From the IMG/VR virus record IMGVR_UViG_3300042901_002340: a stretch of 64,000 bases of DNA; one strand, written 5' to 3'. The position numbers were made by a program, and so were the translations under genes. This DNA comes from a virus. Its lineage: Duplodnaviria > Heunggongvirae > Uroviricota > Caudoviricetes. Positions 19,024 through 36,690 of the stretch are shown piece after piece; position 1 is the first letter of the stretch; each line of letters begins with the position of its first letter. The notes beneath the pieces are model-generated. The model saw only the letters and a program-made list of their open reading frames with translations, ran no database searches and was not told where the DNA came from.

Positions 19024-19797
19024 ATGCCAAGAAAAAAAGCAAAAAACGAACCAATTCCGATCAAAACGGAGAAAAAGCAACCAAAATCAACAAAAACTTC
19101 AAAGGTTGACAGCTTACCAAAAGGACCAATTCTACAAAAAGAGGATTTCAATCACATTAAATTTACTGATTCACAATTGAAATTTTTCAAAACGATCGAA
19201 AATAATTTTCTAACAGTTTGCACTGGACCAGCGGGTACTGCAAAAACTTTCGTGGCATGTTACGCAGCACTGGATCTCATAAGAAAGGGCGAGCATTCAA
19301 AAATAATATTAGCGAGACCCGCAGTAGAATCGGGAGAAAATCTAGGATTTCTACCCGGATCTGTTGACGAAAAAATAGCTCCATATATGGAAGGATATAT
19401 TTCCAATATGGAAAAAATATTAAAAGCCAAGGAAAAAATAAAACTCATGACAGATACAAAAACTATCGATATGCAACCATTAGCTTTCATGAGAAGTAGA
19501 ACATTCGATGATACCATACTAATTCTAGATGAAGCCCAAAATGCAGATCTCAGACAAATAATGTTGGTTGTAACCAGAATGGGTCAGAACTCAAGAATAA
19601 TTATATGTGGGGATGTAACACAGTGGGATCTCAAGGCAAGGAAAAAAGATCTACTCACATTTTCAGAAAAAATAGCAAAAGGGGTAGATCAATGTGGTGC
19701 TTTCGTTTTCACAAGGGAAGATATAGTTAGAAATCCTATACTCATACAACTCACAGATAACTACGAAAAATACAAGGAAGAAAATAATCTAGATTAA
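19024..19797 (+). CDS. phoH: PhoH-family ATPase
   Basis: GPAGTAKT Walker A, ARPAVE..E.LGFLPG, PLAFMRSRTF, ILDEAQN, TRMG, GDVTQ.D and DIVRNP motifs. Confidence 0.95.
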   Translation: MPRKKAKNEPIPIKTEKKQPKSTKTSKVDSLPKGPILQKEDFNHIKFTDSQLKFFKTIENNFLTVCTGPAGTAKTFVACYAALDLIRKGEHSKIILARPAVESGENLGFLPGSVDEKIAPYMEGYISNMEKILKAKEKIKLMTDTKTIDMQPLAFMRSRTFDDTILILDEAQNADLRQIMLVVTRMGQNSRIIICGDVTQWDLKARKKDLLTFSEKIAKGVDQCGAFVFTREDIVRNPILIQLTDNYEKYKEENNLD

Positions 19798-22700
19798 TTA
19801 CCCATCCTTTCTAAATGTTGCGTCCGGGTTATTATAAACAATAAATCCGGAAGAAAAAGGAATAGTTTCACTTCTTAATATAGCAGCCTGCTCTTCTGCA
19901 AGATCCTTAGATAATTTATCAACCTGATAATCTCTACCAGGAAATACCTCAGGCTCTCCATAATCAAAAGAGTTAACAAAATCCGGACGTCTATCGTCCG
20001 GATTTTTTTGTTTATGATTAATAACCTCAATGTATCCTGGATTGGTTCGTACGTACACGTTACCTGCCGCGTCTTCCACGCTATTGTAAATTGTATAGTT
20101 ACCAGGGGCTGTAAAAGTATAGATGAAATAAGGGGTGTCTTTTACGTTTAAGATCTCCTCCTCTGTTATGGAGTTACTAAGTATCCATTTATTATTTTTC
20201 TTACCATATATGTTTGAAGCGTAATTATTAAAAACAACCGTTGTCATAAGTGGTATCTGCATACCACTATCAGTCGAGTGAACATCACACCAAGTCCATG
20301 CACCAGATCCAGGTCTAGATATGATTTGTCCCATATTGATTCCAAGATCCGCTTTATATCTTTTAGATAATACACCAAATCCAGTACCATTTTCTATAAA
20401 TATATACGAATCCCCATCAGCATCGGTTGAAGGATTTGAATAATAACCTCCCATAAATAAGTTTCCGTCATCATCAGAAGTCATAGTAAAAGTATTTATT
20501 GATGCACTACCAAAATTAATTGTGGATAGAACCCTTCCACTAAGATCCGTTTTAGAAACATAATTAAATGGTGGATCTATAAAATTTCTGGAAGATTTCT
20601 TATAGCTTATATAATATTGATCAGATAAAGATAACTGAACATCGCTTAAAGATGTCGCGGAGGAAGAAAGATTAAATGATGATTCAAAATATGTTTTAGG
20701 AGTTCCCTGTTCAGTTAAACCAACAGTAAGAAAATAAGTTTTTAATGCCGAATCAGCAACAAAATTATTTCCGAAATAATTACCAGATTCACCAAAAGTA
20801 GTTGTTAAATAATACATCGATTGATTGTTCGTAGCTTTTGGGATGAATGAATTACCTGATTTTCCACTCAGATACCCGCCAGCTATACCAACGCCTCTAT
20901 TGTCAACTATAAGATAGAATTGTTCATATAAGCTCTCCGTAGTGGAAGGAAAGTATACCCCACCCATGGTAAATGTTCTATTTGAATTTCCTGTTATTAT
21001 AGTACTAGAATCATTATTCATAGATTTACAGCTACCTATATTTTTAATAGATTGTGTGGATGAACCAATCTGTGAAGTTGTTGAATTAATAGTAGCCATA
21101 AGCGAAAGATCATCCGAGGATAACCTAACATAAGAAAGTACGGAGTCACTACTCCATGTTTGTGATATCGGATATGTAGTACCTAATATTACATCGGATG
21201 TATAATAGCCGTCATTTGTTCTATTCCATAAATTTTTTAATGTGGAAACATCGGCAGTTTTTATAACTGATCTATTTGAAGAAAGGTTAACCGCTGATTT
21301 AACAGTTAAATCTATCGAATATTTGGTAACATCAAGTTTTGTTTCCTTTATATCCCCTCTTGTGGACATATATTTTGCAGGAAAATGTCTAAAACCAAGA
21401 CCTCTATAAGATTTTCTAACATCACTAATATAATCAGATCCGTTCCCTCCAAGACCACTAAATGATGTTACACTACCCAAATCTCTTCCTATTTTAGCAA
21501 CAAATGGACTATTACATAATATTCTATTTGTATTCCAGTATTGGGTTCTGGAATTAATTCCCCTAATCCCAGGGAAAACCCCAATTTTAGTCTCATTGAA
21601 TGTAAAATTACCGGTCTCTCCATCATCCAATGGGAATGGACCAGTAGTTCCAGTTGCATATTCTACAAAAAATTTAAGGCCCGATAGATTGCTTAAATTC
21701 TCTATATCTGTTATTATATAAGACGTATTAAAAGAACCGCCTGTTATATCTATAACATTCCCAGTAACAATCGACTGAAGAGTTGAAGTTTGATCTCCGT
21801 TAATATCACCATAATTAAAAACAAAATATTCAGCATTCTCCAATAAGGAATTAGATCCAAAATCAGCATAAAAACCAGGATCAGTTGGCGGCGAAGATAA
21901 CATATATTCCCACGCACCTGTTCCTATAGTGTTATTAGCAGAGACCCATGGAAATTCAGATAAGTTCTCATTGTAATAATTAACATTGGTTAATCCAGCA
22001 GGAGCTCCTGTCGGACCTCCTCTTAATGCATTCTCACTTTCAAGGGAGTCCCAAATATATGGTCCATCCTCGATATATCTAGAAAAGTAACCAGACACTG
22101 CAACAAAATTATCGTCCTCCGAAGGAGCAATATCCTGAACATATGTTCTATATCCTCTAAAAGGTATTATAGCTTCAACCGAGCCATATTCACTATAACT
22201 AACAACAAATCCCATGGTATTACCATCACGAGAATTTGAAGGGTAATTGGAGTAATTTATAGATCCACCAAAAGTGGGATTTAGATTCCTTATACTTGCA
22301 ACATTGCCCACACTATCATAACCAAAATTAGCCTCAACATTACCGGTTAGAAATCCACCAAGATAGTATTTTATACCATTCCTAGTTTTTATTGAAGTTG
22401 AACATGTTACATTAATACTACCTGAAGTGTTAAGTGGAGATAATTGTGTTAGAGTTATTATATCTCTGAAATATGTTGACTGTATCAAATTTGACTCCTG
22501 CTTATCATCAAAAGTTTCAATTGGCCAATTGTTCCAATATTCTTGCTTTCCAGCTCTTCCATCAGCAATATCACTTAGCTTAGTTGTAAGAAAAAGATTT
22601 CTTTCATCCAATCCAGGAAATCTACTAGCCAAATAATCATCCTGATATACTCTCCATTCTGGATAAGACCATGTGTATTTATTAACCTTTGGTAAGGGAA

Positions 22701-23907
22701 TATTATTTAATCCTGCGGTCTCATTAAAATATGTAAAATTCCATCCGGTCGCACCAGCATGTTTAGAAGATGCGTATATATGAGGTTGATCATAATTAAA
22801 GGAGGATAGAGCATTATAACATAGTACCCATAACGAATTCTCATATAGAGTTAAGCTACCCTGCTTTACATTATTTTTTATTAATTTAATATCGAGAACA
22901 TCATTATTCTCTATATAGGTTTGGCTCGAGCTCGGAAGTCCTGTTCCATCTGTAAATCGATCAAGGGTGGTACCATTAAAATGCCAAAATCCACTACCCT
23001 GACGTAATTCTCCATCACCAAAAGTTAAAAAAACGTGACCATTAGGTCTAGACACAACCTTAGTTACAGGCCCAGCAAAACTCTCAGTACCATCAGGAAA
23101 AAAGAAAGAATTTGGGAAATTCCAGAATTTTTTACCATTGAAAAAAGATAGACCCTGATCCGTACCTATCCACAGGTTACCGTCCTCATCAAGATCTATG
23201 GAATATATGTTATCAGATAGTATTTCTGATGTTTTTGTATTATAAACCTCAACCTGCTCTATAATTTCTCCCACACCTCTAAGATACTGAACCTCTTGAG
23301 TTCCCTGTGGCATAATAAATAGTCCTTCAGATGTTGCAACATAGTAAAAGTAATCCTTTCCCTCATATCCTTTAGCCTTTATGTCATAAATATGTGGCCA
23401 AGTATAACCAGGAACAGTTTCTTGCCATTTGTCAATTTCTTTAAGATAATAGAAAAGCCTACCACCAGTAACACCGTTAATTTCGGTGTACCCTGTAGTT
23501 CCTGTTCCACCTATACCATTAAGAGGTGTTGAAAATGCAAGTATATCGTCACCGAAAGGGCACGCATACACTAGCGATATTTCTTGAGGTTCATTGAAAA
23601 CCCCAAGATCGGAGAATTTCCAATTTTTACCTATTGATACATCGTTTGTATCCATCGAAAAAACAGCAAACTCGTTCAAACCTGCAACTGGACCTTGAGC
23701 AACACCGCACCATAAGAAATCATCCTTATCAATATCTATACTTCTGGTATCTAAAAAATATGGAAATCCACTAGGCACTGCGGAATTAGTATAATCATAA
23801 TATTCCCACGCTTCACCATTAAATCTTCTAATGTCCTGACCACAGCCCCAAACATAAGATTCCCTATCCAGAGCTATTTGATTCATTATTAAACCGTAAC
23901 TTGCCAT
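19798..23907 (-). CDS. Large putative virion protein with Reg_prop-like beta-propeller repeats and a C-terminal PKD-like domain
   Basis: 1369 aa. LSDNIYSIDLDEDGNLWIGTDQGLSFFNG is a two-component-regulator propeller-type repeat. C-terminal YTFTAPGNYTIYNSVED is PKD-like. Confidence 0.6.
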   Translation of the reverse strand: MASYGLIMNQIALDRESYVWGCGQDIRRFNGEAWEYYDYTNSAVPSGFPYFLDTRSIDIDKDDFLWCGVAQGPVAGLNEFAVFSMDTNDVSIGKNWKFSDLGVFNEPQEISLVYACPFGDDILAFSTPLNGIGGTGTTGYTEINGVTGGRLFYYLKEIDKWQETVPGYTWPHIYDIKAKGYEGKDYFYYVATSEGLFIMPQGTQEVQYLRGVGEIIEQVEVYNTKTSEILSDNIYSIDLDEDGNLWIGTDQGLSFFNGKKFWNFPNSFFFPDGTESFAGPVTKVVSRPNGHVFLTFGDGELRQGSGFWHFNGTTLDRFTDGTGLPSSSQTYIENNDVLDIKLIKNNVKQGSLTLYENSLWVLCYNALSSFNYDQPHIYASSKHAGATGWNFTYFNETAGLNNIPLPKVNKYTWSYPEWRVYQDDYLASRFPGLDERNLFLTTKLSDIADGRAGKQEYWNNWPIETFDDKQESNLIQSTYFRDIITLTQLSPLNTSGSINVTCSTSIKTRNGIKYYLGGFLTGNVEANFGYDSVGNVASIRNLNPTFGGSINYSNYPSNSRDGNTMGFVVSYSEYGSVEAIIPFRGYRTYVQDIAPSEDDNFVAVSGYFSRYIEDGPYIWDSLESENALRGGPTGAPAGLTNVNYYNENLSEFPWVSANNTIGTGAWEYMLSSPPTDPGFYADFGSNSLLENAEYFVFNYGDINGDQTSTLQSIVTGNVIDITGGSFNTSYIITDIENLSNLSGLKFFVEYATGTTGPFPLDDGETGNFTFNETKIGVFPGIRGINSRTQYWNTNRILCNSPFVAKIGRDLGSVTSFSGLGGNGSDYISDVRKSYRGLGFRHFPAKYMSTRGDIKETKLDVTKYSIDLTVKSAVNLSSNRSVIKTADVSTLKNLWNRTNDGYYTSDVILGTTYPISQTWSSDSVLSYVRLSSDDLSLMATINSTTSQIGSSTQSIKNIGSCKSMNNDSSTIITGNSNRTFTMGGVYFPSTTESLYEQFYLIVDNRGVGIAGGYLSGKSGNSFIPKATNNQSMYYLTTTFGESGNYFGNNFVADSALKTYFLTVGLTEQGTPKTYFESSFNLSSSATSLSDVQLSLSDQYYISYKKSSRNFIDPPFNYVSKTDLSGRVLSTINFGSASINTFTMTSDDDGNLFMGGYYSNPSTDADGDSYIFIENGTGFGVLSKRYKADLGINMGQIISRPGSGAWTWCDVHSTDSGMQIPLMTTVVFNNYASNIYGKKNNKWILSNSITEEEILNVKDTPYFIYTFTAPGNYTIYNSVEDAAGNVYVRTNPGYIEVINHKQKNPDDRRPDFVNSFDYGEPEVFPGRDYQVDKLSKDLAEEQAAILRSETIPFSSGFIVYNNPDATFRKDG

Positions 23908-23927: not shown

Positions 23928-25850
23928 TTATAATGATCCGCCAATTTTCCAACCTCTAAAATAATTGTTATGAGAAGAGGAAGGAACAGTTATTTTGGAA
24001 GGAAGTCCTGTCCAGGATGCCATACCTGAACCAGATGCATTTATATCAGAAGCAAATTTGGAAGTTGGAAATTGGCCAGAATCCCTTCTAACATCATTCA
24101 AAAAATCCTGCATTTGTGAACCCCACATTATCTCCATGGAGTGTATATAACTATTAGAATATGTTGAACTAGTCAGTGGATCCTTTATCGACATCTTAAG
24201 TCCTCCAAAAAATTGATTATACACATAAATACCCTCAGCCCCACCATTGTAATAGGGAGAAAGATTAAAATCAACTTCAAATATTATGTTATCTGAGAGA
24301 CCACCAGGTCTTGCTGCTATACCTGCATTAATCAAAGTAGCTATTCCTGAAAAATTTCCGAATTCAGTGTCACATGCACTTATCATATATAAATCGGGAG
24401 TATTTCCAGTATTACCAGAAGAGGAAACGACAGATTCAAATTCAGTTATTGTGGATCCATCTGAATCACTTAGTATTATTCTTACATCTACATTTACCCC
24501 TCCCTGTCCATACGCCTCCTCGATGAAAGCGCTTGTTGGTATACAAATTCCATGATAGAAATCAAGAGAATCAGCATATCCATCTTCCTCTGCCCATCCG
24601 CCGTCCCATAGGTACCCGAGATATTCGTTCTTATAACCTATACCTGAAGCAAGATCAGCAAATGGGGGTCTTCCACCTCCACTAAAGGTCTTATAATATC
24701 CACCAAGTTCTATAAATTTGCTTGATCCAGAAAGATAGTATTTATTTTCTATAAAATCATTAACAGCAAGTGTATTCCATTCTCTTAGACCGTCGACTAA
24801 TCCAGTAAATGTATTACTAGCTAGATTATCACTCATATAGAATCTATTGTTAAATTGGGAAGAAACGTCACTAGGTGCTATATAATTACCCGTCATAATT
24901 CTAGGAGATGCAGTGTATCCCCCAGTCATGCCAGCGGAGGATAAAGCGGAACCGCTGAGTATAATATTTGTCTTTATTGGTGAATACGTTTTAGATATAT
25001 CTGGACTATTTGGCCAAATATAAACAGCCTCTTGGGTCGAATGAAAACTTGTATTATTCCATCTTGGTGAATATGGACCAAAATCAATTTTAAATACTAA
25101 AGAATTCCCACCCAAACCTAATACTGATGTTCTCTGTGATAACGTCGAAACATTGTAGTATTTACCAGAAGTTGCATATGTCCCAGATGACCTATAATTT
25201 ACTGACTCCTCCACACCAATCTTTCTAAAATTAACATTACGTCCTAATGATACCGCGTTACCCACCGTTGATGAAATTTTAAGTCCAACGGCTACGACAT
25301 AGGAAGAATTCGGAGCTCCCAAATAAGTTCCAGTCAATGTATACCAATCCGTACATGCATAACTTACTGAGGATAAAGTTGTTCCTGAGGTTAGACCAAG
25401 CTGAGGTATCCTCCAATTGTATGATGCATATCCACTACTTGCCGATCCACCAGCAGCGTACGTCAGGGTTCTTCCCATTGGGCTATCTGGCGTACTAGTG
25501 GAACCAGGGGAACCTATGGCACCATAACCACTTCCTGACCCGCCAGTTATTACTATGGCAGGATTAAATATTTCGGGATAAACGACAATTATATTTGGTT
25601 TGTATGCAGCAGCAGTTATACCGCCAGGTCCTGTTATAACAAGTCCAGTGCTATAGCCGGTATAATTAACACCATAGTATCTTATTTCTGGTCCATATAC
25701 GGTACTGGTATTAGGTGTTCCACCTTGGAAGTTCCAAGTTCTGCTAACCCCACCCGTGCTAAGATCATAATAATAAACACGGTCACCCTGATTTATACCT
25801 ATTTTCTCATAATAAATAATATCCACCTGATCTATACCTATTCGCGCCAT
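23928..25850 (-). CDS. Putative virion protein with N-terminal PKD-like domain
   Basis: 640 aa. DLSTGGVSRTWNFQGGTPNTST..GP.I.Y PKD signature. GATATATA motif about 20 nt upstream. Confidence 0.6.
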   Translation of the reverse strand: MARIGIDQVDIIYYEKIGINQGDRVYYYDLSTGGVSRTWNFQGGTPNTSTVYGPEIRYYGVNYTGYSTGLVITGPGGITAAAYKPNIIVVYPEIFNPAIVITGGSGSGYGAIGSPGSTSTPDSPMGRTLTYAAGGSASSGYASYNWRIPQLGLTSGTTLSSVSYACTDWYTLTGTYLGAPNSSYVVAVGLKISSTVGNAVSLGRNVNFRKIGVEESVNYRSSGTYATSGKYYNVSTLSQRTSVLGLGGNSLVFKIDFGPYSPRWNNTSFHSTQEAVYIWPNSPDISKTYSPIKTNIILSGSALSSAGMTGGYTASPRIMTGNYIAPSDVSSQFNNRFYMSDNLASNTFTGLVDGLREWNTLAVNDFIENKYYLSGSSKFIELGGYYKTFSGGGRPPFADLASGIGYKNEYLGYLWDGGWAEEDGYADSLDFYHGICIPTSAFIEEAYGQGGVNVDVRIILSDSDGSTITEFESVVSSSGNTGNTPDLYMISACDTEFGNFSGIATLINAGIAARPGGLSDNIIFEVDFNLSPYYNGGAEGIYVYNQFFGGLKMSIKDPLTSSTYSNSYIHSMEIMWGSQMQDFLNDVRRDSGQFPTSKFASDINASGSGMASWTGLPSKITVPSSSHNNYFRGWKIGGSL

Positions 25851-25899: not shown

Positions 25900-26862
25900 C
25901 TATTGAGAATTTCTTTTTTCTCTTGCGTATAATATTGCCTGGACGTAGTTATATGAATTGTGATTTTTGTCAATCCCACTAAAATCATGGTCCCATGGTG
26001 CAGTGTTTATAAAATCTCCCTTATAAAAAACTTTTCCGTCCATATTATTAGTAATACCTGCATTATGCATGATTTTATATTTATACCATTCTGTTGTTCC
26101 ATATGAGCTACCCCAACTAAAGCCAAGTTCATCAGATATTCTAACATCATTACCCCTTTTAATCCCACACCATAAAACAGCCCACATATCAGCACACCAT
26201 TTTTGTATTGGATTATAATCTTTAAGATCCGAATCATCCAATGTACTTCTTTCAATTTGTTCCCGATCACTCATATACTTATAGAGATCGAGAGAAAGAA
26301 ATTCAACCTCCTTCCAAAAATCGCCATCTATCCCCTTCATAAGATATTGAGCACCTCCAGAGTTTTTATTATTTTCGGAGATGATATCCGGATCAACCCC
26401 GGCGATTTCACACATTTCATTAAAGAGATCAACGGATTTACTTTTTATATAATCTGAACCTATATAGGAAACAGTATCACTAAGATACCAAGTTTTATCT
26501 CCGGTTAATATATCAAAGTTTGGTAGCTCCCTGAATATTATATCTGAATCATGGTAGAATATATTTTCATCAGATAGCTCCGGATATCTAGTAAAATGTT
26601 TATAAAGTATATTTGGTCTTACTATCGGGATGTATCCGTAATTTTCGATTGCATCCTTTTTATAAAAGAAAACCCTGACATACGGGTATTTTTTAGCCAA
26701 GTTCATTCCCTCGCGAGATGGAGAATTATCATATCCAAATATTATTTCTATCCAGTTTGGATTTATCCCACTTTTCATTGCATTATGTATGAAAACCTCC
26801 ACTTGCCAATGAAAATATGGCACGTCAGGCTGTGCGCAAATGAAAACAATCTTATTCTGCAT
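25900..26862 (-). CDS. GT-A fold glycosyltransferase resembling plant peptidyl O-glycosyltransferases (HPAT/GT95, SERGT1/GT96)
   Basis: Motifs YFHWQ, Y.P..RP, YHDSDIIF (DxD), GGAQY, WCADMWA and HNAG occur in the order of the HPAT/SERGT motifs as recalled. The ATG at 26862 is preferred over the TTG at 26865. Confidence 0.75.
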   Translation of the reverse strand: MQNKIVFICAQPDVPYFHWQVEVFIHNAMKSGINPNWIEIIFGYDNSPSREGMNLAKKYPYVRVFFYKKDAIENYGYIPIVRPNILYKHFTRYPELSDENIFYHDSDIIFRELPNFDILTGDKTWYLSDTVSYIGSDYIKSKSVDLFNEMCEIAGVDPDIISENNKNSGGAQYLMKGIDGDFWKEVEFLSLDLYKYMSDREQIERSTLDDSDLKDYNPIQKWCADMWAVLWCGIKRGNDVRISDELGFSWGSSYGTTEWYKYKIMHNAGITNNMDGKVFYKGDFINTAPWDHDFSGIDKNHNSYNYVQAILYAREKRNSQ

Positions 26863-26878
26863 CAATCAAATTTTAATC

Positions 26879-26907
26879 ATTATAGAATAATAAATTTAAT
26901 TTGTTTC
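26879..26907 (-). promoter_or_regulatory. GAAA-N19-TATAAT putative early/middle promoter (glycosyltransferase)
   Basis: The - strand reads GAAACAAATTAAATTTATTATTCTATAAT, a near copy of the site at 56488-56516. Confidence 0.45.
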
Positions 26908-27833
26908 TAAGAACATCCAATATATTGGTTACCCTCAGTTTTGAAATTTAGAAATATTGCACCATCACCATCAATTGCTCCTCTACTATATGAAAATGGA
27001 CCGACAAAAGCAGTACATGATGGGTAATTCACATTAGAGGTAATACTAGGATTACCACAATATGCCATAAGGTTTAAACAAGTTGTTTCTATTCCAGTTA
27101 GTGCTGCACCAAAACTAATTCCTTGAAGCGAACCAGTAAGATAAGCACCAATCCATAGGGTATTTCCATTTGGAACTGTAATATTATATTGGTTAGCCGA
27201 ACTAAAGGAAGTTCCCAAAATAGCACCATTGACAACCACTTGCCAGGTTGCTCCAAAATCCTCACTTTTTACAATAGTAACATTGGAATCACCAGGTGAG
27301 GAAGAAATAGATCCTGATCTCTTAGCGTATATGGTTACATTCCTAAGATTGTCACATGGACTATCGTAAGCGAAATCCCCAGCACCGTCCCAGAACCAAA
27401 TACTTGTTCCGTCGGAATAATAACCAGGCTCAGCAAAATAACCAATCCCACCACAAGGATCAGTAGGTTCATAAATATAGAGGTTTGTACCACCAAAATA
27501 ATAATCGGTAGGTGCAAAGAAATAATTATCACATGCAAGCTGAGGTTCAGATGGATCATATCCATAAATTACTCCTGAACACCCTAGGGTTGTTGTTGTT
27601 GTCGTCGTCGTAGTTATACCAGATATTGGTATTGTTATCTGATTTGTACAATTAGTGGTGTTTGATTTTACTACAAAACTAGTAGCTGCATCAGGAACAA
27701 CTATGGGATACCCACTTAGTAAGGAAGCTCTACTAACACCAGTTACAATGGGTGTAACCAAATCAAGATTTGTAAAAATCGAAAAACTACCTGTGTCTAT
27801 ACCAGCTGTTGTTAATTGTATTGTTACTGTCAT
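26907..27833 (-). CDS. Cys-containing putative virion decoration protein with a poly-Thr linker
   Basis: 308 aa. N-terminal beta domain, then a T9 run (27588-27614), then Cys/Gly/Tyr-rich domains. Confidence 0.6.
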   Translation of the reverse strand: MTVTIQLTTAGIDTGSFSIFTNLDLVTPIVTGVSRASLLSGYPIVVPDAATSFVVKSNTTNCTNQITIPISGITTTTTTTTTLGCSGVIYGYDPSEPQLACDNYFFAPTDYYFGGTNLYIYEPTDPCGGIGYFAEPGYYSDGTSIWFWDGAGDFAYDSPCDNLRNVTIYAKRSGSISSSPGDSNVTIVKSEDFGATWQVVVNGAILGTSFSSANQYNITVPNGNTLWIGAYLTGSLQGISFGAALTGIETTCLNLMAYCGNPSITSNVNYPSCTAFVGPFSYSRGAIDGDGAIFLNFKTEGNQYIGCS

Positions 27834-27846
27834 TTTTTATTACATT

Positions 27847-30800
27847 TTAAGTTGATACTGTTATTGCATATGAATACTGAATTTGTCCTGGTGCAGCATT
27901 AAGAGTTGCCACATATACTGGAGCTGCGTACGTAAAATTAACAGGACCAATAAGACTACCACCACCTAATGAGGCTTTACTAAATGTACCTATACCTGTA
28001 CCCTGAAACCTAATAACGAAATTACCACCGGTTGTTGGTAAAAAATTACTATTCATAGGAAGTTCAACAACCCCATTATTGGGTATTGTTGCAAACCCAG
28101 CTGATATATCGCTACGAGGAACGGATTCATAGAAAATCTGCCATGTTCCAGTCACAGTATTACCAGTCGTGTTATAAACAGTGAATGTTCCGAAAGGAGA
28201 TACAGTAGTGGTTGTTGTTGTTGATGTTGTTGTCGGATAATTAACAACAGCAGTACCTGATAGGATACAATCAAAAGGAGGAGCAGTCGTGGTGGTTGTT
28301 GTAGTAGGGGCCAACGTTGTCGTTGTTGTCGTACTAGTCGTTGTTGTCGTTGTTGTAGTACTAGTCGTTGTTGTCGTACTAGTCGTTGTTGTTGTTGTCG
28401 TAACAGGAGAACCACCAGTGTAACCAAAATCAGGAATTAATAACGCACTACCACCAATCAATGAAGGTGGCGCATAATATGGGCCATTGACTAGAATTGC
28501 ATTATTCACAGCAGTATTTATAGGACCCACAGTGGCTAATAAAGATCCAGCATCATTAGGTATTACCCTATAATGGAAATTTCCTATATTTTCGAGACCA
28601 GAGTTATTAAGTTGTGATGCTGCAGTAGCAAGTGTTAACACACGGAATTTACCAAGGCCAAAGAAAATAAGGGTTCCTGGGAATGGATAAGTTTCGTTAC
28701 CTGTTGATATTTTTAGAGTGTCAAGATTTCTCAGAGAGTGCAATTCATATCCACCCAACCAATCATTATTAAATTCATAATCGTACCAGGAATGTGCATA
28801 CCCATCATCCCATGTGCTTTCGTTGAATATCTGCCAGCATAATCTTTTTGTTCCCCAATATTTAAGATTAGGATTCGGATATTCCTCGATATTCTCATCC
28901 CAATAAACATAGAAATCCTCAGAATTAACTCCACCAGTAAGAGATGCTGAAACCGAAAGTATATTAATAGATCCGCTCTCCTCAACCCTTAGAGGAACAC
29001 CATTCTGATCAGCACCAAGTTCACTTGGTGCATATATTGTAATAGTAACAGGATCTTCCTGTGGGTTTTCACACGAAGCAAAGTAATCAGGATATGTTCT
29101 AAGAGAGTTTATTGCTGATGTTATTTCATTGGCACTGTTGTACAGACTATCGCCAGTCTCGCTATATCCTATAAGTCTATCACCTACATAAACTGATAAA
29201 TTTCCACCACCAAGGATCCTTTGTGATCCATAGATAGAGGTATCGACATAAAGCTTTTGCGGAGATATGGTTTGTAATAAAACACCACTCCATATGGATT
29301 CTAGAGTTATTGGTATATAAAATGTAAATTCATCAACGACCATTGCGTACCATCTCCCATTAATCTGTGGTATACTTCCAGTGATGGTTACTTCGTCACC
29401 ATCGGAAAGATCATGGAATATAGTTGTTGTAACGTTTGCATATCCATACTGACCTGTGGTAATCTCCAAAGATTCAATAGCGGATACTGTAAGTGTTTTC
29501 TGATTCAATGTTATGGTACCATACGCCCCGTTTGGTGGTTGTGTCGTTCTAACATAAACATCCTGTCCGTCGTCAGCCTTATTACCATACGTAGCAAAAT
29601 CAAGAATCTCGGATGGTATTGCCTTTTTAAGTTCATCCATCGTAGATCCCTCGGAAGGGTATTCCCATATTGAGTCATATTCTCTCCATTCCCTATCAAC
29701 ATTGTTCCAAAGATAATTTTCAACCTCTCTATATCTAGCCCAAGAATCAATATCAACCGTTTTTGGATCGACAAAAATTGAAGAGTTTTTAATAACACTA
29801 GTCTTTGCATTAAAAGCGTCATACGTGTTGCATATGACTTGATATTCTCCAGTGTAAGGTAAGAAGTGGGCTAGCTTATAATAATCAACTATGGATCCTC
29901 TAAATTCGAAATGATACGGTGTACCTGATTGGGTAGCAGATTTATTTACAATCCATTCAATTTCCATCATATTGGAGAAATCCACGTTCTTCCAATTTAA
30001 CATGGAATAATTCTGAACGTCCGAATATAATTCAGTATCACCAAAAATTCCAGTTGTTGAGTCATCGAGTGCTATCTCATAATCACCACTACTATAATAA
30101 ACAGCTGTAACTGTACCGAATATTCCGGTTGACTTAACTCTCACTCTGTCTCCTGGTCTATATGTGGGTATTAGTAGGGCATCCCAATCTATATTCAATT
30201 CATCCCATTCCCATCTATCTGGGGAAAGCTCCAGTATTACTGGCATTCCAACAGGGGTTTCGTACATTTCTCCAGTTACTGGATCCGTATATGCGGGAGG
30301 ATCTAGTTTTCCATCACCAAGCTCTATTATCTTGCCATTTTGCTTAAGATTGTAGAATTCAGCAATAGCAGATAGGAGAGATTCGTTTTGAACCGGTGTG
30401 TAATTTTGTTGAGAATCCAGGGGGTTTATAATATTACCGAGATCCGACAATGTTGCAGGAACTATTTGTATTAGACCCGACATCGATGTTGGATTTGTTT
30501 TGGAATAATATCGTATAGTACCAGATGCCTCAGGAGCTATGTACCACTGCATAGAATATCCACCAGTTGCTCCATTATTAACTATACCAGTAGGAACATT
30601 AAGAGGCCACTGTAGGGGTGAATTTGGATAACCGGAGAAAGATGTTATATTGAAACTAGCTCCAGTTGAATTGGGATCCTTAACATTGAAGGTGTAGGAT
30701 TTTCCAGCTTGCAATTTTAGAATTGGATTATCTCCAGTAACACCATATGGTATATACCCATTAAATCTTATAGCACTCCCAGTACCACCAGGGAAAGAAA

Positions 30801-32619
30801 CATCCAAGGAATACGAATTATCATACGTGCTAGGAATCTGTATATAATTAGGATTGGGTCTTATATTAAAATTTCTAAGATCCTCTATGAATCCAAAATC
30901 TGGATTTGGGAAGAAATCAAAATCATAACCTATGTTTATATCAGATCTTAACATCTGATCAGTCCAAGATCTTGTGTTTTGTATCATGAAATAAACACCC
31001 TCACCAGTAATGTCTATTATCCTAGCATTTAAAGGTAAATAGTCTCTCTTTAATCTTTCCTTTAAAGCAAATATTTTTATAAGTACTTCCTCTTGTGTAA
31101 ATTTAAAAGCATCAACAACAACAGGGTAACCATATTCGTCAGTGTCACCAGTAACCTTATTAAGATCGTAATAAAGGCCAAATAATGATGTTTTCTTTAT
31201 GGATTTACTAGGAAGTTGTGAATTTTCCGAGGTAACATTAAGAACATAATTTCCCTTCCCGTCAGGCCCGTATGTCTGTGTAAGCTTATATTTACCAGAA
31301 TTTGGATTATCTAATACGTCCCCGATATTATAAGACTGCGAATATCCATTCTTAGATTGCTCAGTTTTTATTTTATTAAGAAAAGATTGATTCTGTTGTA
31401 GAGGCGATTCTAATTTTAGGTTTTTATAGTTTAGATTTAACCAGTATTCCTTTATCCTCATGTCCTGATATCCGAAGAACTTAAGGGCATTAATAAGACC
31501 TTTATAACTACCTATATAAGGAAATATATCCTCGCCAGCTATAAGTAGCTCTTTTCTCTTTTCATTGATCTCTAGAAAGTTTGGAACTGGTTCAGCAGGA
31601 TCATGATCCCTAAGTATCACAGAATCACTATTATAAAAAGATCTCCCTATATTCTCCAGAAGAACCTTAAATCTTTCATCCTCACCTATAGTTTGTCCAT
31701 AGAAATCAACCTCCATAATCTTCTGGGGAGTTCCTGTTGTTATGTCCTCTACGATAAGTTTTCTTTCATAGACATTGTCCAAATCATCCGGTGAATTTAA
31801 GGCAACGTTTATTGCTACTGCATCGGAAATAACATTCTCAGTAACTATTAAACCATTAGAATAGTAGTCATTAATATCGGAATCTATAGGAATTACCATA
31901 TTCGGATAACTAATAATCAATGGCTCACCATCTCCTCCAGGCAATTGATCTTCTATGGTATATGTGAATATTATTTCGGAAACGTCAACATCGCCATAGT
32001 TATTGTTATACCACCTGGTTCTCCATCTTGCCCCTGTGGACCCAATATTAGACGTGTGAGGTAACCCATATTCAAGATCACCTGAAGGTGTTAAAAACTC
32101 CTGAACCACAAAAATCTGTTGGTTCTCATACAACCCAGTAGAAATTGGATCGAAATAGATATTACCTTTGAAATATCCACCGGGTCTATTCTCATAACTG
32201 GTTTCAAAATAAACCTGAGTATCATAGCTTATAATACTCTGTCCGAGAAAATAACTCTTAGGTAGAACAACAGTAAAAGTCTGATTCACATTAATTGTAA
32301 TTGATCCTAACTTACATTTGAAATTGGTATTTGCAACAGGAATATGACCAGTTAAATATATGGTTGCACCCTTATCCATAAAATCACCAGCTTCGACACA
32401 CCATCTAGATAAATTTGTATTGTTTACATCATCTATATTTAAAGTAAGAGTATAATCATCAGGATTTTCTACCCATTGGAAGTAACCAGCAGTAGTTGCA
32501 GAATCACTAAGAATATGTGAAAATACAGTATCAAGAGGTGTTGGACCAGTTGGTCCTATGTAATCAAAATTTAACGGATTACCATTTTTGTTATAAAAAT
32601 TAAGATTTAGATTTGCCAT
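27847..32619 (-). CDS. Baseplate wedge-like (gp7-type) large protein with a mucin-like poly-Thr C-terminal extension
   Basis: 1590 aa, two genes downstream of the gp6-like gene. IGSYKGLINALKFFGY wedge-type motif. C-terminal T/S runs. Confidence 0.6.
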   Translation of the reverse strand: MANLNLNFYNKNGNPLNFDYIGPTGPTPLDTVFSHILSDSATTAGYFQWVENPDDYTLTLNIDDVNNTNLSRWCVEAGDFMDKGATIYLTGHIPVANTNFKCKLGSITINVNQTFTVVLPKSYFLGQSIISYDTQVYFETSYENRPGGYFKGNIYFDPISTGLYENQQIFVVQEFLTPSGDLEYGLPHTSNIGSTGARWRTRWYNNNYGDVDVSEIIFTYTIEDQLPGGDGEPLIISYPNMVIPIDSDINDYYSNGLIVTENVISDAVAINVALNSPDDLDNVYERKLIVEDITTGTPQKIMEVDFYGQTIGEDERFKVLLENIGRSFYNSDSVILRDHDPAEPVPNFLEINEKRKELLIAGEDIFPYIGSYKGLINALKFFGYQDMRIKEYWLNLNYKNLKLESPLQQNQSFLNKIKTEQSKNGYSQSYNIGDVLDNPNSGKYKLTQTYGPDGKGNYVLNVTSENSQLPSKSIKKTSLFGLYYDLNKVTGDTDEYGYPVVVDAFKFTQEEVLIKIFALKERLKRDYLPLNARIIDITGEGVYFMIQNTRSWTDQMLRSDINIGYDFDFFPNPDFGFIEDLRNFNIRPNPNYIQIPSTYDNSYSLDVSFPGGTGSAIRFNGYIPYGVTGDNPILKLQAGKSYTFNVKDPNSTGASFNITSFSGYPNSPLQWPLNVPTGIVNNGATGGYSMQWYIAPEASGTIRYYSKTNPTSMSGLIQIVPATLSDLGNIINPLDSQQNYTPVQNESLLSAIAEFYNLKQNGKIIELGDGKLDPPAYTDPVTGEMYETPVGMPVILELSPDRWEWDELNIDWDALLIPTYRPGDRVRVKSTGIFGTVTAVYYSSGDYEIALDDSTTGIFGDTELYSDVQNYSMLNWKNVDFSNMMEIEWIVNKSATQSGTPYHFEFRGSIVDYYKLAHFLPYTGEYQVICNTYDAFNAKTSVIKNSSIFVDPKTVDIDSWARYREVENYLWNNVDREWREYDSIWEYPSEGSTMDELKKAIPSEILDFATYGNKADDGQDVYVRTTQPPNGAYGTITLNQKTLTVSAIESLEITTGQYGYANVTTTIFHDLSDGDEVTITGSIPQINGRWYAMVVDEFTFYIPITLESIWSGVLLQTISPQKLYVDTSIYGSQRILGGGNLSVYVGDRLIGYSETGDSLYNSANEITSAINSLRTYPDYFASCENPQEDPVTITIYAPSELGADQNGVPLRVEESGSINILSVSASLTGGVNSEDFYVYWDENIEEYPNPNLKYWGTKRLCWQIFNESTWDDGYAHSWYDYEFNNDWLGGYELHSLRNLDTLKISTGNETYPFPGTLIFFGLGKFRVLTLATAASQLNNSGLENIGNFHYRVIPNDAGSLLATVGPINTAVNNAILVNGPYYAPPSLIGGSALLIPDFGYTGGSPVTTTTTTTSTTTTTSTTTTTTTTSTTTTTTLAPTTTTTTTAPPFDCILSGTAVVNYPTTTSTTTTTTVSPFGTFTVYNTTGNTVTGTWQIFYESVPRSDISAGFATIPNNGVVELPMNSNFLPTTGGNFVIRFQGTGIGTFSKASLGGGSLIGPVNFTYAAPVYVATLNAAPGQIQYSYAITVST
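28205..28402 (-). repeat. Thr-codon (ACN)n microsatellite encoding mucin-like tracts
   Basis: The + strand reads gtt/gtc runs with recurring gtactagtc blocks. Protein: TTTTTTTTSTTTTTSTTTTTTTTSTTTTTTLAPTTTTTTTAPP...PTTTSTTTTTT. Confidence 0.95.
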
Positions 32620-33161: not shown

Positions 33162-34886
33162 TTATTTATTTTGAGCTGCTAATTGTGTCTTAAGTTCGGA
33201 AGTTAGATCACTTCTGAAATTCTTAGGTACCAGAGAAGCAACAGTTATATTAAGAGGTCCAGGTTTACCTGCAACTATACTATCAGTAAAGAATGTTCCG
33301 TTCCTATCAGACCACCCACCTCTGAGTATAACAAGTTCATTTCTTCCTATTAATATATCACCAAAATTATCCATTCCTATAACCTCGTTATATTGGGAAT
33401 CACTAACATTAGAAAGATTCTTTATCGCTATTTGATTGGCTTCGTTTTTCTGTCCTATGAAAAATAAAGAAACTGAATCAACCCCAGCTATACCTTCAAC
33501 TACTGCTATGAGATCAGATTTTGGTATCTTATCCCTTCTTTTATTACCAAGCATATAATCAGAGAATCTTTTTCTTATAGTTTGTTTTATAGTTTCGGGA
33601 TCATAACCTTCAAAAATAGAAATTACGACATTAACAACATATCTTGTTATTATTGGCTCAACTATTTTAACAACAGTTGTTGCTATCATAGATCCAGAGT
33701 CCTGAATCATGTTTATTATTTTTGTTTTTTGTTGCTGTGTCAATAGAAAATCAGCATCGGACACACTGAAGTAATCCTCATTAGTTGTTAAATTTAGAGT
33801 GACATCAGGAACTAAATAAAGGTAAACTATATTATCATCATCCAGATAATCATCATCAAAAGTTGAAAATGCCTGGATTTGAGAGAAAACACCAAATTTG
33901 GTCAAGAATATCTCATAGTTTACTGGATTTGCAAAAACAAAAGATCTACTTGTTTTAGGAGCAACCAATCTTATAAGAGATATACTTTCGGGATTGGTTC
34001 CGAAAGTTGGGTCTATGTTATTCTTAATATCTATATAAAGATTAAGATCAACTTCACCACCAAAAAGATCAGTACCAGTAGTCACAAATTTATATGTAAG
34101 TGGTGTTTCTTTTGTAGAATTTGCATTACCACTTATTCCGCTTGTTTGTAGATATTCAACTCTTATAACAGATCCAGGCGGAGGGACCATACCAAAATTA
34201 GAATTACCAAAATAAATATCAATGCCCTCCTGTATTCCACTTCTAACTAAATATCCCTTACCATTAAGAGGTACGTCATAGAGTGAATCATATCTTTTCC
34301 AAGTTTCCTCGTTAACATAAACATCTATATAAAATTGATCTATATAAGATCCTGCTGTTGAAGGAAGATTATAACTTTGCAAGGCAACACCACTTCCTGT
34401 TAATGTTGCGCTCTCGAAATTACCCTGTACTATTTTTGCAGCTATAGAATTACCTCTTACTAAGGGTATAGTAACTTCGCTACTGCCAAATCTAAGAGAA
34501 TATATTTTACCATTTTGTAGGCATCTTATTTGAGAATTACCTTTTATTATGACAGCACCTCCAGAAACGTCTCCCTCCCTAGTGTTCCAAGATATAGAAA
34601 CCTCGCCCTGAGCAGCGGCTGCCCTACCTGGATCATATCCAGCTATTCTAGCTAAACTTCTCACCGAATAGTCCCTAGTTGCTTCCTGCATATTCAATTC
34701 AGTTATGGAATCCTCAATAAAATATAATATAAGCTGGGAAAGATTCTGAAGAACAAAAAGTATTTGTCCCCATGCAGAAGCAACAGTAAATACGTTTGTT
34801 GTTTGATTATATGTACTTTGGAGAAAAGAAAAAGTATCTCCTAAAAGTCCATCAATAAGTATGTTATTTTTCTTAAATATATTCAT
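33162..34886 (-). CDS. Baseplate wedge protein, T4 gp6-like
   Basis: SV..LARIAGY.P, IYFGNSNFG.VP..GS.I.VEYL.TSG..GN and ESISLIR..AP motifs. Directly follows the gp25-like gene. Confidence 0.85.
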   Translation of the reverse strand: MNIFKKNNILIDGLLGDTFSFLQSTYNQTTNVFTVASAWGQILFVLQNLSQLILYFIEDSITELNMQEATRDYSVRSLARIAGYDPGRAAAAQGEVSISWNTREGDVSGGAVIIKGNSQIRCLQNGKIYSLRFGSSEVTIPLVRGNSIAAKIVQGNFESATLTGSGVALQSYNLPSTAGSYIDQFYIDVYVNEETWKRYDSLYDVPLNGKGYLVRSGIQEGIDIYFGNSNFGMVPPPGSVIRVEYLQTSGISGNANSTKETPLTYKFVTTGTDLFGGEVDLNLYIDIKNNIDPTFGTNPESISLIRLVAPKTSRSFVFANPVNYEIFLTKFGVFSQIQAFSTFDDDYLDDDNIVYLYLVPDVTLNLTTNEDYFSVSDADFLLTQQQKTKIINMIQDSGSMIATTVVKIVEPIITRYVVNVVISIFEGYDPETIKQTIRKRFSDYMLGNKRRDKIPKSDLIAVVEGIAGVDSVSLFFIGQKNEANQIAIKNLSNVSDSQYNEVIGMDNFGDILIGRNELVILRGGWSDRNGTFFTDSIVAGKPGPLNITVASLVPKNFRSDLTSELKTQLAAQNK

Positions 34887-35358: not shown

Positions 35359-36690
35359 ATGAAAAATTTAGAAGAATTAATAGACAAGGAGAAAAATAAG
35401 GAAACCAAAGTTTTAGGTCCATTCCTTAATAAAATGAAACGGGATTCCGGATTGATCTCAGAATTGGAGGAATCAACACGATACCTGGACACAGAATATG
35501 ATAATGTGTCTATAGGACAAAGATTCTATCATGTATGGTTTAATGAGCACAACATAATAAAATGTAAATACTGTGCAAGAAATGCCAAATTTTCAGTGTA
35601 TGATAGATTCTCGGATAAGATTGATAAAAAGGATTCAAACTATTACACACATTGCGGTTCAGTTAGCTGTCTAATAGATGACTTTAAAGAAAGAGGCAAT
35701 AGTAAACAGGGATATGGTTCGCTAATAGGAAAAATATCAGGAGACACAGATACTAGAAATGAACTGCTTTCGCTGACTAGCTTCCTGGATGAAGAATATA
35801 CAAACATAAGTGATTCACAAAGATTCTATCATGTATTTTTTAATAAAATGGAGTTGGAATTGTGTGAATTTTGTGGGAAACCAAGGAAATATGGCTTTAT
35901 GAATAAATTCTCAGAAATACGAGATAAAAGAGATTCGAACTATTGCAGGACATGCATCGAAAAAAAATGTTTAATAATGGCAAATATTAAATATTCCAAA
36001 ATTGGATTAATGAATAATCACGGGGTTCAAAATCAATGGGATATACCAGGATATAGGGAAAGTATAGAAACGACGAATATGGAGAGGTACGGGAATAAAT
36101 ATTATACCACCACAAATCAATTCAAAGAAAAATGTACAGAAAAATACAATCTAGATTGGAACGGGAAACATCCAACAAGCCACCAATCAACAAAGGATAA
36201 AAAATATAAAACCAATCTTGGGAAATATGGGTTTAAGTGCGCATTAATGGATAAGGAGCTTATGAAAAAATCAATGCTTGAAAAGTACGGTGTTGAACAC
36301 AATATGAGGATCCCAGAAATACACGAAAAAGCAATGGTAACAATGAGAAGATATTACGATTATACATTACCGAGTGGAAAAATCATAAAACTTCAGGGTT
36401 ACGAAAAGTTTGCAATGGATATATTATTGACCCGATTCGAGGAGAATGATATACTTACAGATATGCATGATATATCAAATATAACCGGCCAAATAATATA
36501 CAATGGTGGAAATAGATATTACCCAGATATCTATATAAAATCAATAAATAAAATATTGGAAGTTAAAAGCCCATATACTTATAAAATGCACGAAAATAAA
36601 AATATAATGAAAATGCAAAGATGTCTCGAAATGGGTATGGATTTTGAATTCATGATATTTGATAGCAAAGGTAATCTAGTAAATATATAA
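35359..36690 (+). CDS. Free-standing putative homing endonuclease: duplicated Zn-binding modules, T..(E/K)YG repeats, C-terminal PD-(D/E)XK nuclease
   Basis: Two ~100-aa repeats with CxxC...CxxxxC; TNMERYG/TNLGKYG/SMLEKYG repeats; LQGYE...YYPDIYI...ILEVKS nuclease motif. Inverted relative to the operon. Confidence 0.75.
   Translation: MKNLEELIDKEKNKETKVLGPFLNKMKRDSGLISELEESTRYLDTEYDNVSIGQRFYHVWFNEHNIIKCKYCARNAKFSVYDRFSDKIDKKDSNYYTHCGSVSCLIDDFKERGNSKQGYGSLIGKISGDTDTRNELLSLTSFLDEEYTNISDSQRFYHVFFNKMELELCEFCGKPRKYGFMNKFSEIRDKRDSNYCRTCIEKKCLIMANIKYSKIGLMNNHGVQNQWDIPGYRESIETTNMERYGNKYYTTTNQFKEKCTEKYNLDWNGKHPTSHQSTKDKKYKTNLGKYGFKCALMDKELMKKSMLEKYGVEHNMRIPEIHEKAMVTMRRYYDYTLPSGKIIKLQGYEKFAMDILLTRFEENDILTDMHDISNITGQIIYNGGNRYYPDIYIKSINKILEVKSPYTYKMHENKNIMKMQRCLEMGMDFEFMIFDSKGNLVNI

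Follow-up and report, generated by a model that had tools for sequence, protein, structure and literature searches.

A GT-A glycosyltransferase gene gained and lost together with poly-threonine tracts on baseplate-side proteins: a candidate O-glycosylation cassette of a jumbo phage

To our knowledge, glycosylation of virions has been demonstrated experimentally in a few actinobacteriophages only. In actinobacteriophages, virion glycosylation alters antibody recognition. Here we describe a stretch of 64,000 nucleotides from a tailed phage (IMG/VR record IMGVR_UViG_3300042901_002340, Caudoviricetes; the whole stretch is called the window below), in which a gene for a glycosyltransferase of the GT-A fold directly follows two genes with poly-threonine (poly-Thr) tracts, and we suggest that the enzyme probably starts O-glycosylation of such tracts. 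PMC12363180 and PMC12619734 give virion glycosylation as established for the mycobacteriophages Che8, Corndog and Myrna, locate the glycans on capsid and tail-tube subunits, at their C-termini, and summarise the Che8 gp110 and Corndog gp38 system of Freeman et al. 2023. The locus described here resembles these systems in having a phage-encoded glycosyltransferase gene in or beside structural genes, and relatives of the enzyme in Bacillota phages adjoin Thr tails on capsid and tail-tube proteins, the types glycosylated in mycobacteriophages. It appears to differ in the enzyme family, as the genus Mycobacterium is not among the named genera listed for the 77 tblastn matches of the enzyme (see below), and in its candidate acceptor, an explicit and genetically portable poly-Thr tag. 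In addition, the Thr of the source phage forms internal linkers on baseplate-side proteins and not a capsid or tube tail, and glycosylation is demonstrated in the mycobacteriophages, whereas here it is inferred from genes alone.

Three further groups of enzymes can be compared. Retaining GT-A glycosyltransferases of the GT8/GT24 type (glycogenin, Gat1, GlyE, LgtC and UGGT) have a sequence identity of 6-11% to the enzyme. Their acceptors range from protein Tyr to glycans and lipooligosaccharide; Gat1 is the Skp1 alpha-galactosyltransferase, and GlyE belongs to the glycosylation of serine-rich-repeat adhesins. The second group contains the glycosyltransferases of peptides that are made by ribosomes and then modified after translation (RiPPs), such as the glycocins (SunS-type) and glycosylated lanthipeptides, and the known glycocin enzymes belong to family GT2. 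Fused members of the family of the enzyme lie in clusters of LanB, LanC, C39-ABC (ATP-binding cassette) and HlyD genes with a Thr-rich precursor, whereas the phage members are stand-alone, and their acceptors, if any, would be large virion proteins. The third group contains the plant hydroxyproline O-arabinosyltransferases HPAT1-3 (GT95) and the peptidyl-serine alpha-galactosyltransferase SGT1 (GT96), which initiate glycosylation by adding a first sugar to the hydroxy-amino acids of low-complexity peptide tracts (PMC8012813). As type II membrane proteins of the Golgi, HPATs start glycosylation on peptide hydroxyproline (Hyp), and GT95 is related to GT96 (PMC8012813). A GT-A-like fold has been predicted for GT95 (PMC8476585).

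The source phage genome is 430,120 bp long with direct terminal repeats, and the window is one part of it. Within a long minus-strand structural block of the window, which includes genes for the major head protein and for sheath-like, hub and wedge proteins, three consecutive open reading frames (ORFs) encode a 1590-aa protein, a 308-aa protein and the enzyme, with gaps of 13 and 41-44 nt. These three co-oriented genes had been pointed out in an earlier note made from the sequence, and their parts are as follows:

25900..26862, minus strand: soluble GT-A glycosyltransferase (predicted), phrog_4417; 320 aa from ATG 26862, or 321 aa from TTG 26865
26907..27833, minus strand: 308-aa candidate acceptor protein; N-terminal domain 27615-27833, T9 linker 27588-27614, distal domain 26907-27587
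27847..28410, minus strand: C-terminal extension of ~190 aa of the 1590-aa protein, candidate glycosylated stalk; runs 28315-28401, 28285-28305 and 28204-28233
28411..32619, minus strand: conserved core, residues 1 to ~1403 of the 1590-aa protein, from the alignment of homologs
27847-32619, minus strand: the whole 1590-aa baseplate-side ORF, from the ORF call

The 320-aa length from the ATG start equals that of the database homologs of the enzyme. The Thr/Ser runs of the 1590-aa protein occupy residues 1407-1435, 1439-1445 and 1463-1472 and contain 46 Thr or Ser residues in all, in agreement with the figure of about 45 given earlier. They sit in the last ~190 residues and separate small domains. 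The T9 linker of the 308-aa protein, also described earlier, is found at residues 74-82. In the whole genome, windows with at least 8 Thr or Ser in 10 residues are present in only 3 of ~545 ORFs, and the only two strong ones among these immediately precede the enzyme gene, an arrangement that is more than chance. The Thr runs are encoded by mixed codons (ACA, ACT, ACG and ACC) and are therefore kept at the protein level, not as a simple DNA repeat. An alignment of 14 homologs shows that the 308-aa family has a conserved N-terminal domain of ~73 aa, a poly-Thr linker of 9-20 residues and swapped C-terminal domains; this architecture looks like an anchored stalk with a variable tip. The N-terminal domain is a beta domain, and the distal domain is hypervariable and Cys-rich. 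The AlphaFold2 model of the 308-aa protein is poor, with a predicted local distance difference test score (pLDDT) of 48, and is confident for residues 1-70 only. As a side observation, the distal domain in two relatives of this protein (L017:8744-9943 and L023:2214-3428) looks Hint/intein-like by eye only, with a Cys-led block near its start and a ...THNK end.

The enzyme matches phrog_4417, annotated as 'unknown function', at 1e-65, and it has no Pfam, NCBIfam or PDB sequence match (Pfam at E<=1). Its AlphaFold2 model, built with an alignment of 27 homologs, has a pLDDT of 94.8 and a predicted template modelling score (pTM) of 0.91, and folds into a single Rossmann-like alpha/beta/alpha domain. 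The best 50 matches of this model in a Foldseek search against the PDB are all glycosyltransferases of the GT-A fold. D106 and D108, which form the DxD metal/nucleotide-sugar motif, are invariant in all three family alignments, and H267 (in HNAG), a candidate third metal ligand, is invariant in the family alignments as well. In the alignment of 56 members, where D106-x-D108 and H267 do not vary, the mean identity is 31%; W20, Y78, Q173, Q221, W223, M227 and K282 are also invariant family-wide. The model, the fold search and the DxD motif thus agree with the earlier assignment of the third gene, and they indicate that its product is truly a GT-A glycosyltransferase, belonging to an unnamed family; its chemistry is probably retaining. 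The family is large: a library of 1.8 billion proteins contains 965 of its clusters (50% identity, E<=0.001). Neither Glyco_transf_8 (CAZy GT8) nor any other Pfam glycosyltransferase model matches the enzyme or its relatives in sets of 49 and 56, so the likeness to GT8 is structural only. None of the 120 relatives listed by a search with a Bacillota-phage profile has a precomputed Pfam domain, and a paralog search found no second copy of the enzyme in the phage genome. The first beta strand begins at residue 6 and there is no hydrophobic N-terminal segment, so the enzyme is predicted to be soluble and cytoplasmic. A PDB profile match of NSGGAQY to TAL-effector repeats is spurious and of low complexity, and was rejected as chance.

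We searched 50,697 phage records with the enzyme by tblastn and obtained 77 matches at E<=1e-5. Most of them are Bacillota phages (Lactobacillus, Enterococcus, Staphylococcus, Lactococcus and Clostridium), and the best match is Chryseobacterium phage MA9V-3. The enzyme gene lies within late structural operons of both siphophages and myophages. In siphophages it is located in the head-tail morphogenesis block, after the capsid gene in VPE25 and iLp84, and in phiCTP1 it is located between the tail-tube and chaperone genes. Its differing places within the morphogenesis block suggest an accessory gene that is co-expressed with the structural ones.

To survey co-occurrence, we took 167 loci that surround homologs, called their ORFs and marked Thr/Ser tracts. 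In almost every phage context the enzyme gene has poly-Thr tracts beside it, whatever the neighbour protein is. After dereplication of members at 80% identity, 61 of 72 stand-alone members have a same-strand Thr run no more than 3 kb away, versus 1 of 42 fused members; only 10 stand-alone members have a run beyond 3 kb, though more sequence lies there. In Bacillota phages and prophages, C-terminal Thr tails are found on the major head protein (phrog_10), on a protein of ~106 aa (phrog_749) and on the major tail or tail-tube protein (phrog_88 and phrog_6686), whose gene immediately precedes that of the enzyme. The annotated major tail protein is Thr-tailed in VPE25 and iLp84, as is the major capsid protein in iLp84. 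phiCTP1, which at first seemed to be an exception, has T6 runs on three structural proteins. As the Thr-bearing proteins differ between lineages, the Thr run is their sole common denominator. A T7-coding DNA pattern gave 133 matches in 20 carrier records, compared with 3 for the reversed control, and most of the matches lie less than 5 kb from the enzyme gene and on its strand. We also note that in VPE25 the gap annotated as 'intergenic' after the major head gene (L003:7740-7885) encodes a 45-aa Thr-rich tail in the -1 frame. The -1 frame is open over the last 9 codons of the head gene only, and the gene ends with GCA AAG TAA; a Thr-tailed capsid variant could arise through a slip into the -1 frame on A-AAG, at the stop codon.

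The association was also approached from the side of the Thr tract. IMG/VR loci (n=118) were chosen by the DNA pattern (ACN)10 alone, without reference to the enzyme, and 65 of them encode the pattern as Thr10 or longer within an ORF. The enzyme is present inside the fetched locus in 8 of these 65, and it directly abuts the Thr ORF in every pair with coordinates listed. Two more of the 65 have the enzyme elsewhere on the contig, with Thr ORFs that run off the end of the fetched locus; this contig-level search left out 68 T10 loci. In the other 53 loci no called ORF translates the pattern as Thr, and the enzyme is found in 0 of them. The enrichment over the overall rarity of the family is very large.

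A further link between the two traits is seen in the lineage of the baseplate gene. An alignment search found homologs of the 1590-aa protein in 80 loci, with 44-92% identity. In 64 of these loci the downstream sequence extends for 3 kb or more; both the Thr extension and the enzyme are present in 22 of the 64 and neither in 42, while the extension only and the enzyme only are each found in 0. In a tree made from the first 1300 residues of the baseplate protein, which excludes the columns of the trait itself, 5 joint state changes are needed; well-supported branches carry at least 4 of these, and the two traits switch together in each case. Sister groups that differ in the cassette include L295/L297 as against L296/L299. 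Synteny by blastp (L295/L296, L317/L341 and L305/L313) shows that the cassette is either cleanly inserted or absent between conserved flanking genes. In relatives without it, the baseplate protein ends near residue 1400 and the gene for a 640-aa protein comes directly next, so this gene marks the right border of an add-on of ~2.5 kb. The Thr extension, the linker protein and the enzyme are therefore a portable cassette of ~2.5 kb. The co-occurrence across phages, which the earlier note had put forward as a check, is thus strongly positive, including joint gain and loss.

These counts bear on one alternative, that the Thr runs are plain, unmodified flexible linkers and that the enzyme is an unrelated accessory gene in structural modules. 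It would agree with the lack of the enzyme family in most sampled T10-bearing phage loci. It does not fit the 22/0/0/42 distribution with at least 4 joint changes, the 61/72 adjacency across phyla, or the result of 8/65 versus 0/53 in the loci chosen by Thr pattern, and we regard it as highly improbable.

A second alternative concerns the target. The Foldseek search against the PDB gave a mixed result: the fold matches include enzymes acting on proteins or glycoproteins (glycogenin, Gat1, UGGT and GlyE) as well as enzymes acting on lipopolysaccharide (LPS; LgtC and WbbM), and no DNA glycosyltransferase is found among the best 50. Because of this mixture, the fold leaves the acceptor undecided. 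The enzyme might act on a non-protein target, such as a host envelope glycan, LPS, teichoic acid or phage DNA, and its link to poly-Thr might be indirect, for example through a shared mobile host-range cassette. LgtC, WbbM and TarP among the fold matches are compatible with such a target, and so is the movement of the cassette as one unit in the lineage of this phage. We consider this distinctly unlikely, as the enzyme gene lies within late structural operons of siphophages and myophages, and its occurrence follows that of Thr tails on capsid and tail-tube proteins, which are unrelated to host-range cassettes. The lack of DNA glycosyltransferases among the best 50 fold matches and the location of cellular relatives in peptide clusters, not in polysaccharide loci, also argue against it.

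We therefore favour, as the probable reading of the gene contexts, that the enzyme starts O-glycosylation of poly-Thr tracts on virion proteins, an action on neighbouring tracts that the earlier note had proposed and that co-occurrence and joint gain and loss support. A cytoplasmic, metal-dependent GT-A enzyme (DxD plus His) would be made together with the late structural genes and would draw on a host or phage nucleotide-sugar. It would place the first sugar on Thr hydroxyls of the two proteins encoded just upstream, namely in the C-terminal stalk of the 1590-aa protein and in the T9 linker of the 308-aa protein. The outcome may be mucin-like extended linkers that hold variable distal domains off the baseplate. 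Stiffness, protease resistance and mimicry as roles of such linkers, and with them any benefit to the phage, are speculation.

Several observations weigh against the initiation of glycosylation on poly-Thr. Most phage contigs with T10 ORFs do not carry the enzyme family, so poly-Thr does not require it. There are 11 stand-alone members without a nearby Thr run, some of them on short contigs; L071 has no Thr run within 10 kb, and the record of L025 has runs 38 kb away. No Thr run lies near 41 fused members. Within the lineage of the baseplate gene, the sign test on independent pairs is underpowered (4/4, p = 0.125), and because Thr runs, distal domains and enzyme travel jointly there, some other part of the cassette could be the acceptor as far as this lineage alone is concerned. 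The fold neighbours include enzymes acting on LPS and O-antigen and do not fix the acceptor, and virion glycosylation of the carriers is deduced from their genes.

Fused members of the family, 450-590 aa long with a second domain, are encoded on chromosomes of Chitinophaga, Pedobacter, Mucilaginibacter and Sphingobacterium. The enzyme tree places the fused cellular members in one group and the stand-alone phage members in another, with weak support at its base. In Sphingobacterium detergens (L116:2253-15383), a fused 534-aa homolog lies within a class I lanthipeptide cluster; this cluster also encodes a LanB split in two, LanC, HlyD, an ABC exporter with a C39 peptidase, and a precursor of 81 aa that has a T13 run. 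A LanT-like exporter was found by blastp at 34 other fused loci and at two stand-alone Pedobacter loci, and LanB and LanC are present as well at three more. This gene context suggests that the fused relatives glycosylate peptides, giving glycosylated RiPPs.

Elsewhere, members of the family are fused to further glycosyltransferase domains (GT7C, GT6, GT2, GT25 and GT32). The phage itself has a glycan gene cluster ~90 kb away, outside the window (L287:2729-11571 = G000:C1:228728-237570). It encodes a GT2 enzyme, a fusion of HAD-phosphatase and nucleotidyltransferase, a GT6 enzyme, a GT7C-like glycosyltransferase, a GDP-fucose-synthase-like epimerase, a GDP-mannose 4,6-dehydratase (2e-118) and two proteins without assigned function, one with a weak DUF7164 match. 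Since GT7C, GT6 and GT2 domains are fused to the enzyme family in other genomes, there is a hint, and no more, that the glycosyltransferases of this cluster and the enzyme act in one pathway.

Both the fusions and the separate glycan cluster would also suit an enzyme that acts on virion glycoproteins without being the Thr initiator, either by elongating a sugar placed by the host or by modifying the distal domains. The structural neighbours Gat1, UGGT, GlyE, LARGE1 and XXYLT1, which extend existing glycans, point in the same direction. However, five carrier phages that are cultured and complete lack any GT2 or GT1/GT4 gene, in keeping with an enzyme that initiates and takes its sugar nucleotides from the host. 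Elongation would need a Thr-initiating enzyme in the host cytoplasm in both Bacillota and Bacteroidota, and the Thr run is the only feature common to very different neighbour proteins across phyla. We therefore believe that a purely elongating or tip-modifying role is unlikely and that initiation on poly-Thr is the better reading.

The earlier note had lined up motifs of the enzyme with those of the plant HPAT and SGT1 enzymes. The quoted motifs are all present in the order given there, as YFHWQ (17-21), YIPIVRP (78-84), DSD (106-108) and WCADMWA (223-229). Membership in GT95 or GT96 is not supported. The HPAT model PF23452 has no match in the own genome of the phage at E<=10, and none in the enzyme, 105 relatives (49 + 56), 5 cultured-phage homologs and 20 carrier phage records. 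It was also not found in 5 Bacteroidota genomes with fused homologs or in 401 sampled Bacteroidota genomes. In an Atlas search with language-model features, PF23452 is found in 22 of 30 named neighbour clusters, where 10-58% of the members bear it, and DUF7164 in 6. DUF7164 (PF23741) has a weak match (E 0.06) to another ORF of the same genome. Kinship with plant HPAT/SGT1 is thus an open lead given by language-model resemblance alone and is not confirmed. By analogy, the enzyme may work like HPAT-type enzymes. It differs from them in that no member tested has a PF23452 hidden Markov model match, and in being predicted soluble and cytoplasmic, whereas plant HPATs are membrane-anchored Golgi type II proteins. 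The acceptor is Thr in our proposal for the phage enzyme and Hyp or Ser for the plant enzymes.

The genes on both sides of the cassette belong to the structural block. The order on the minus strand is gp6-like wedge, 176-aa gene, 1590-aa protein, 308-aa protein, enzyme, 640-aa protein and 1369-aa protein, with two flanking features of note:

23928..25850, minus strand: 640-aa structural-block protein, right border of the cassette by blastp synteny
33162..34886, minus strand: baseplate wedge (gp6-like) gene, phrog_219 at 5.9e-32

The earlier label of the 1590-aa protein as 'baseplate-type' fits the context, because the upstream gene 33162-34886 matches the baseplate wedge family phrog_219; the 1590-aa protein itself has no named family, and its core matches phrog_28177 at 3e-21. 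The promoter/terminator scan found the gaps between the three cassette genes free of terminator-like sites, so the enzyme, 308-aa and 1590-aa genes are likely co-transcribed with the late genes; promoter-like sites are rarer than in shuffles and thus uninformative. A megablast search of the region against cultured phages gave no match. The 1369-aa protein (19798-23907, minus strand), encoded two genes downstream of the cassette, has a Reg_prop repeat match of 1.8e-4, just above the cut-off, and a weak PKD match, and may be a beta-propeller fibre-like protein. Plus-strand ORFs at 19024-19797 (257 aa) and 35359-36690 (443 aa) break the otherwise minus-strand structural block.

In the literature on poly-threonine or glycosylated phage tail and capsid proteins, we found no description of such a module. 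We tentatively consider a broader picture, which at present we would call possible and not probable. One family of soluble peptide O-glycosyltransferases would recognise portable poly-Thr tags; phages of at least two phyla would use it to coat capsids, tail tubes or baseplate appendages in a mucin-like manner, and Bacteroidota would attach sugars to secreted RiPPs or lanthipeptides with the fused versions. The plant GT95/GT96 enzymes, which glycosylate extensins, would be distant relatives of this bacterial and viral family, and in the jumbo phage the separate GDP-fucose, GT6 and GT7C genes would build the first sugar out into a complex glycan. The family is present in cultured, therapy-relevant phages of Enterococcus, Staphylococcus and lactobacilli, and also in jumbo phages. 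If the enzyme does act on poly-Thr, sugar-coated virions would be common, and a poly-Thr tag together with the enzyme gene would be a simple sequence rule for predicting glycosylated virion proteins, and glyco-engineering would gain a compact pair of enzyme and tag. Given the link to lanthipeptide clusters, some glycosylated RiPPs may so far have gone unrecognised.

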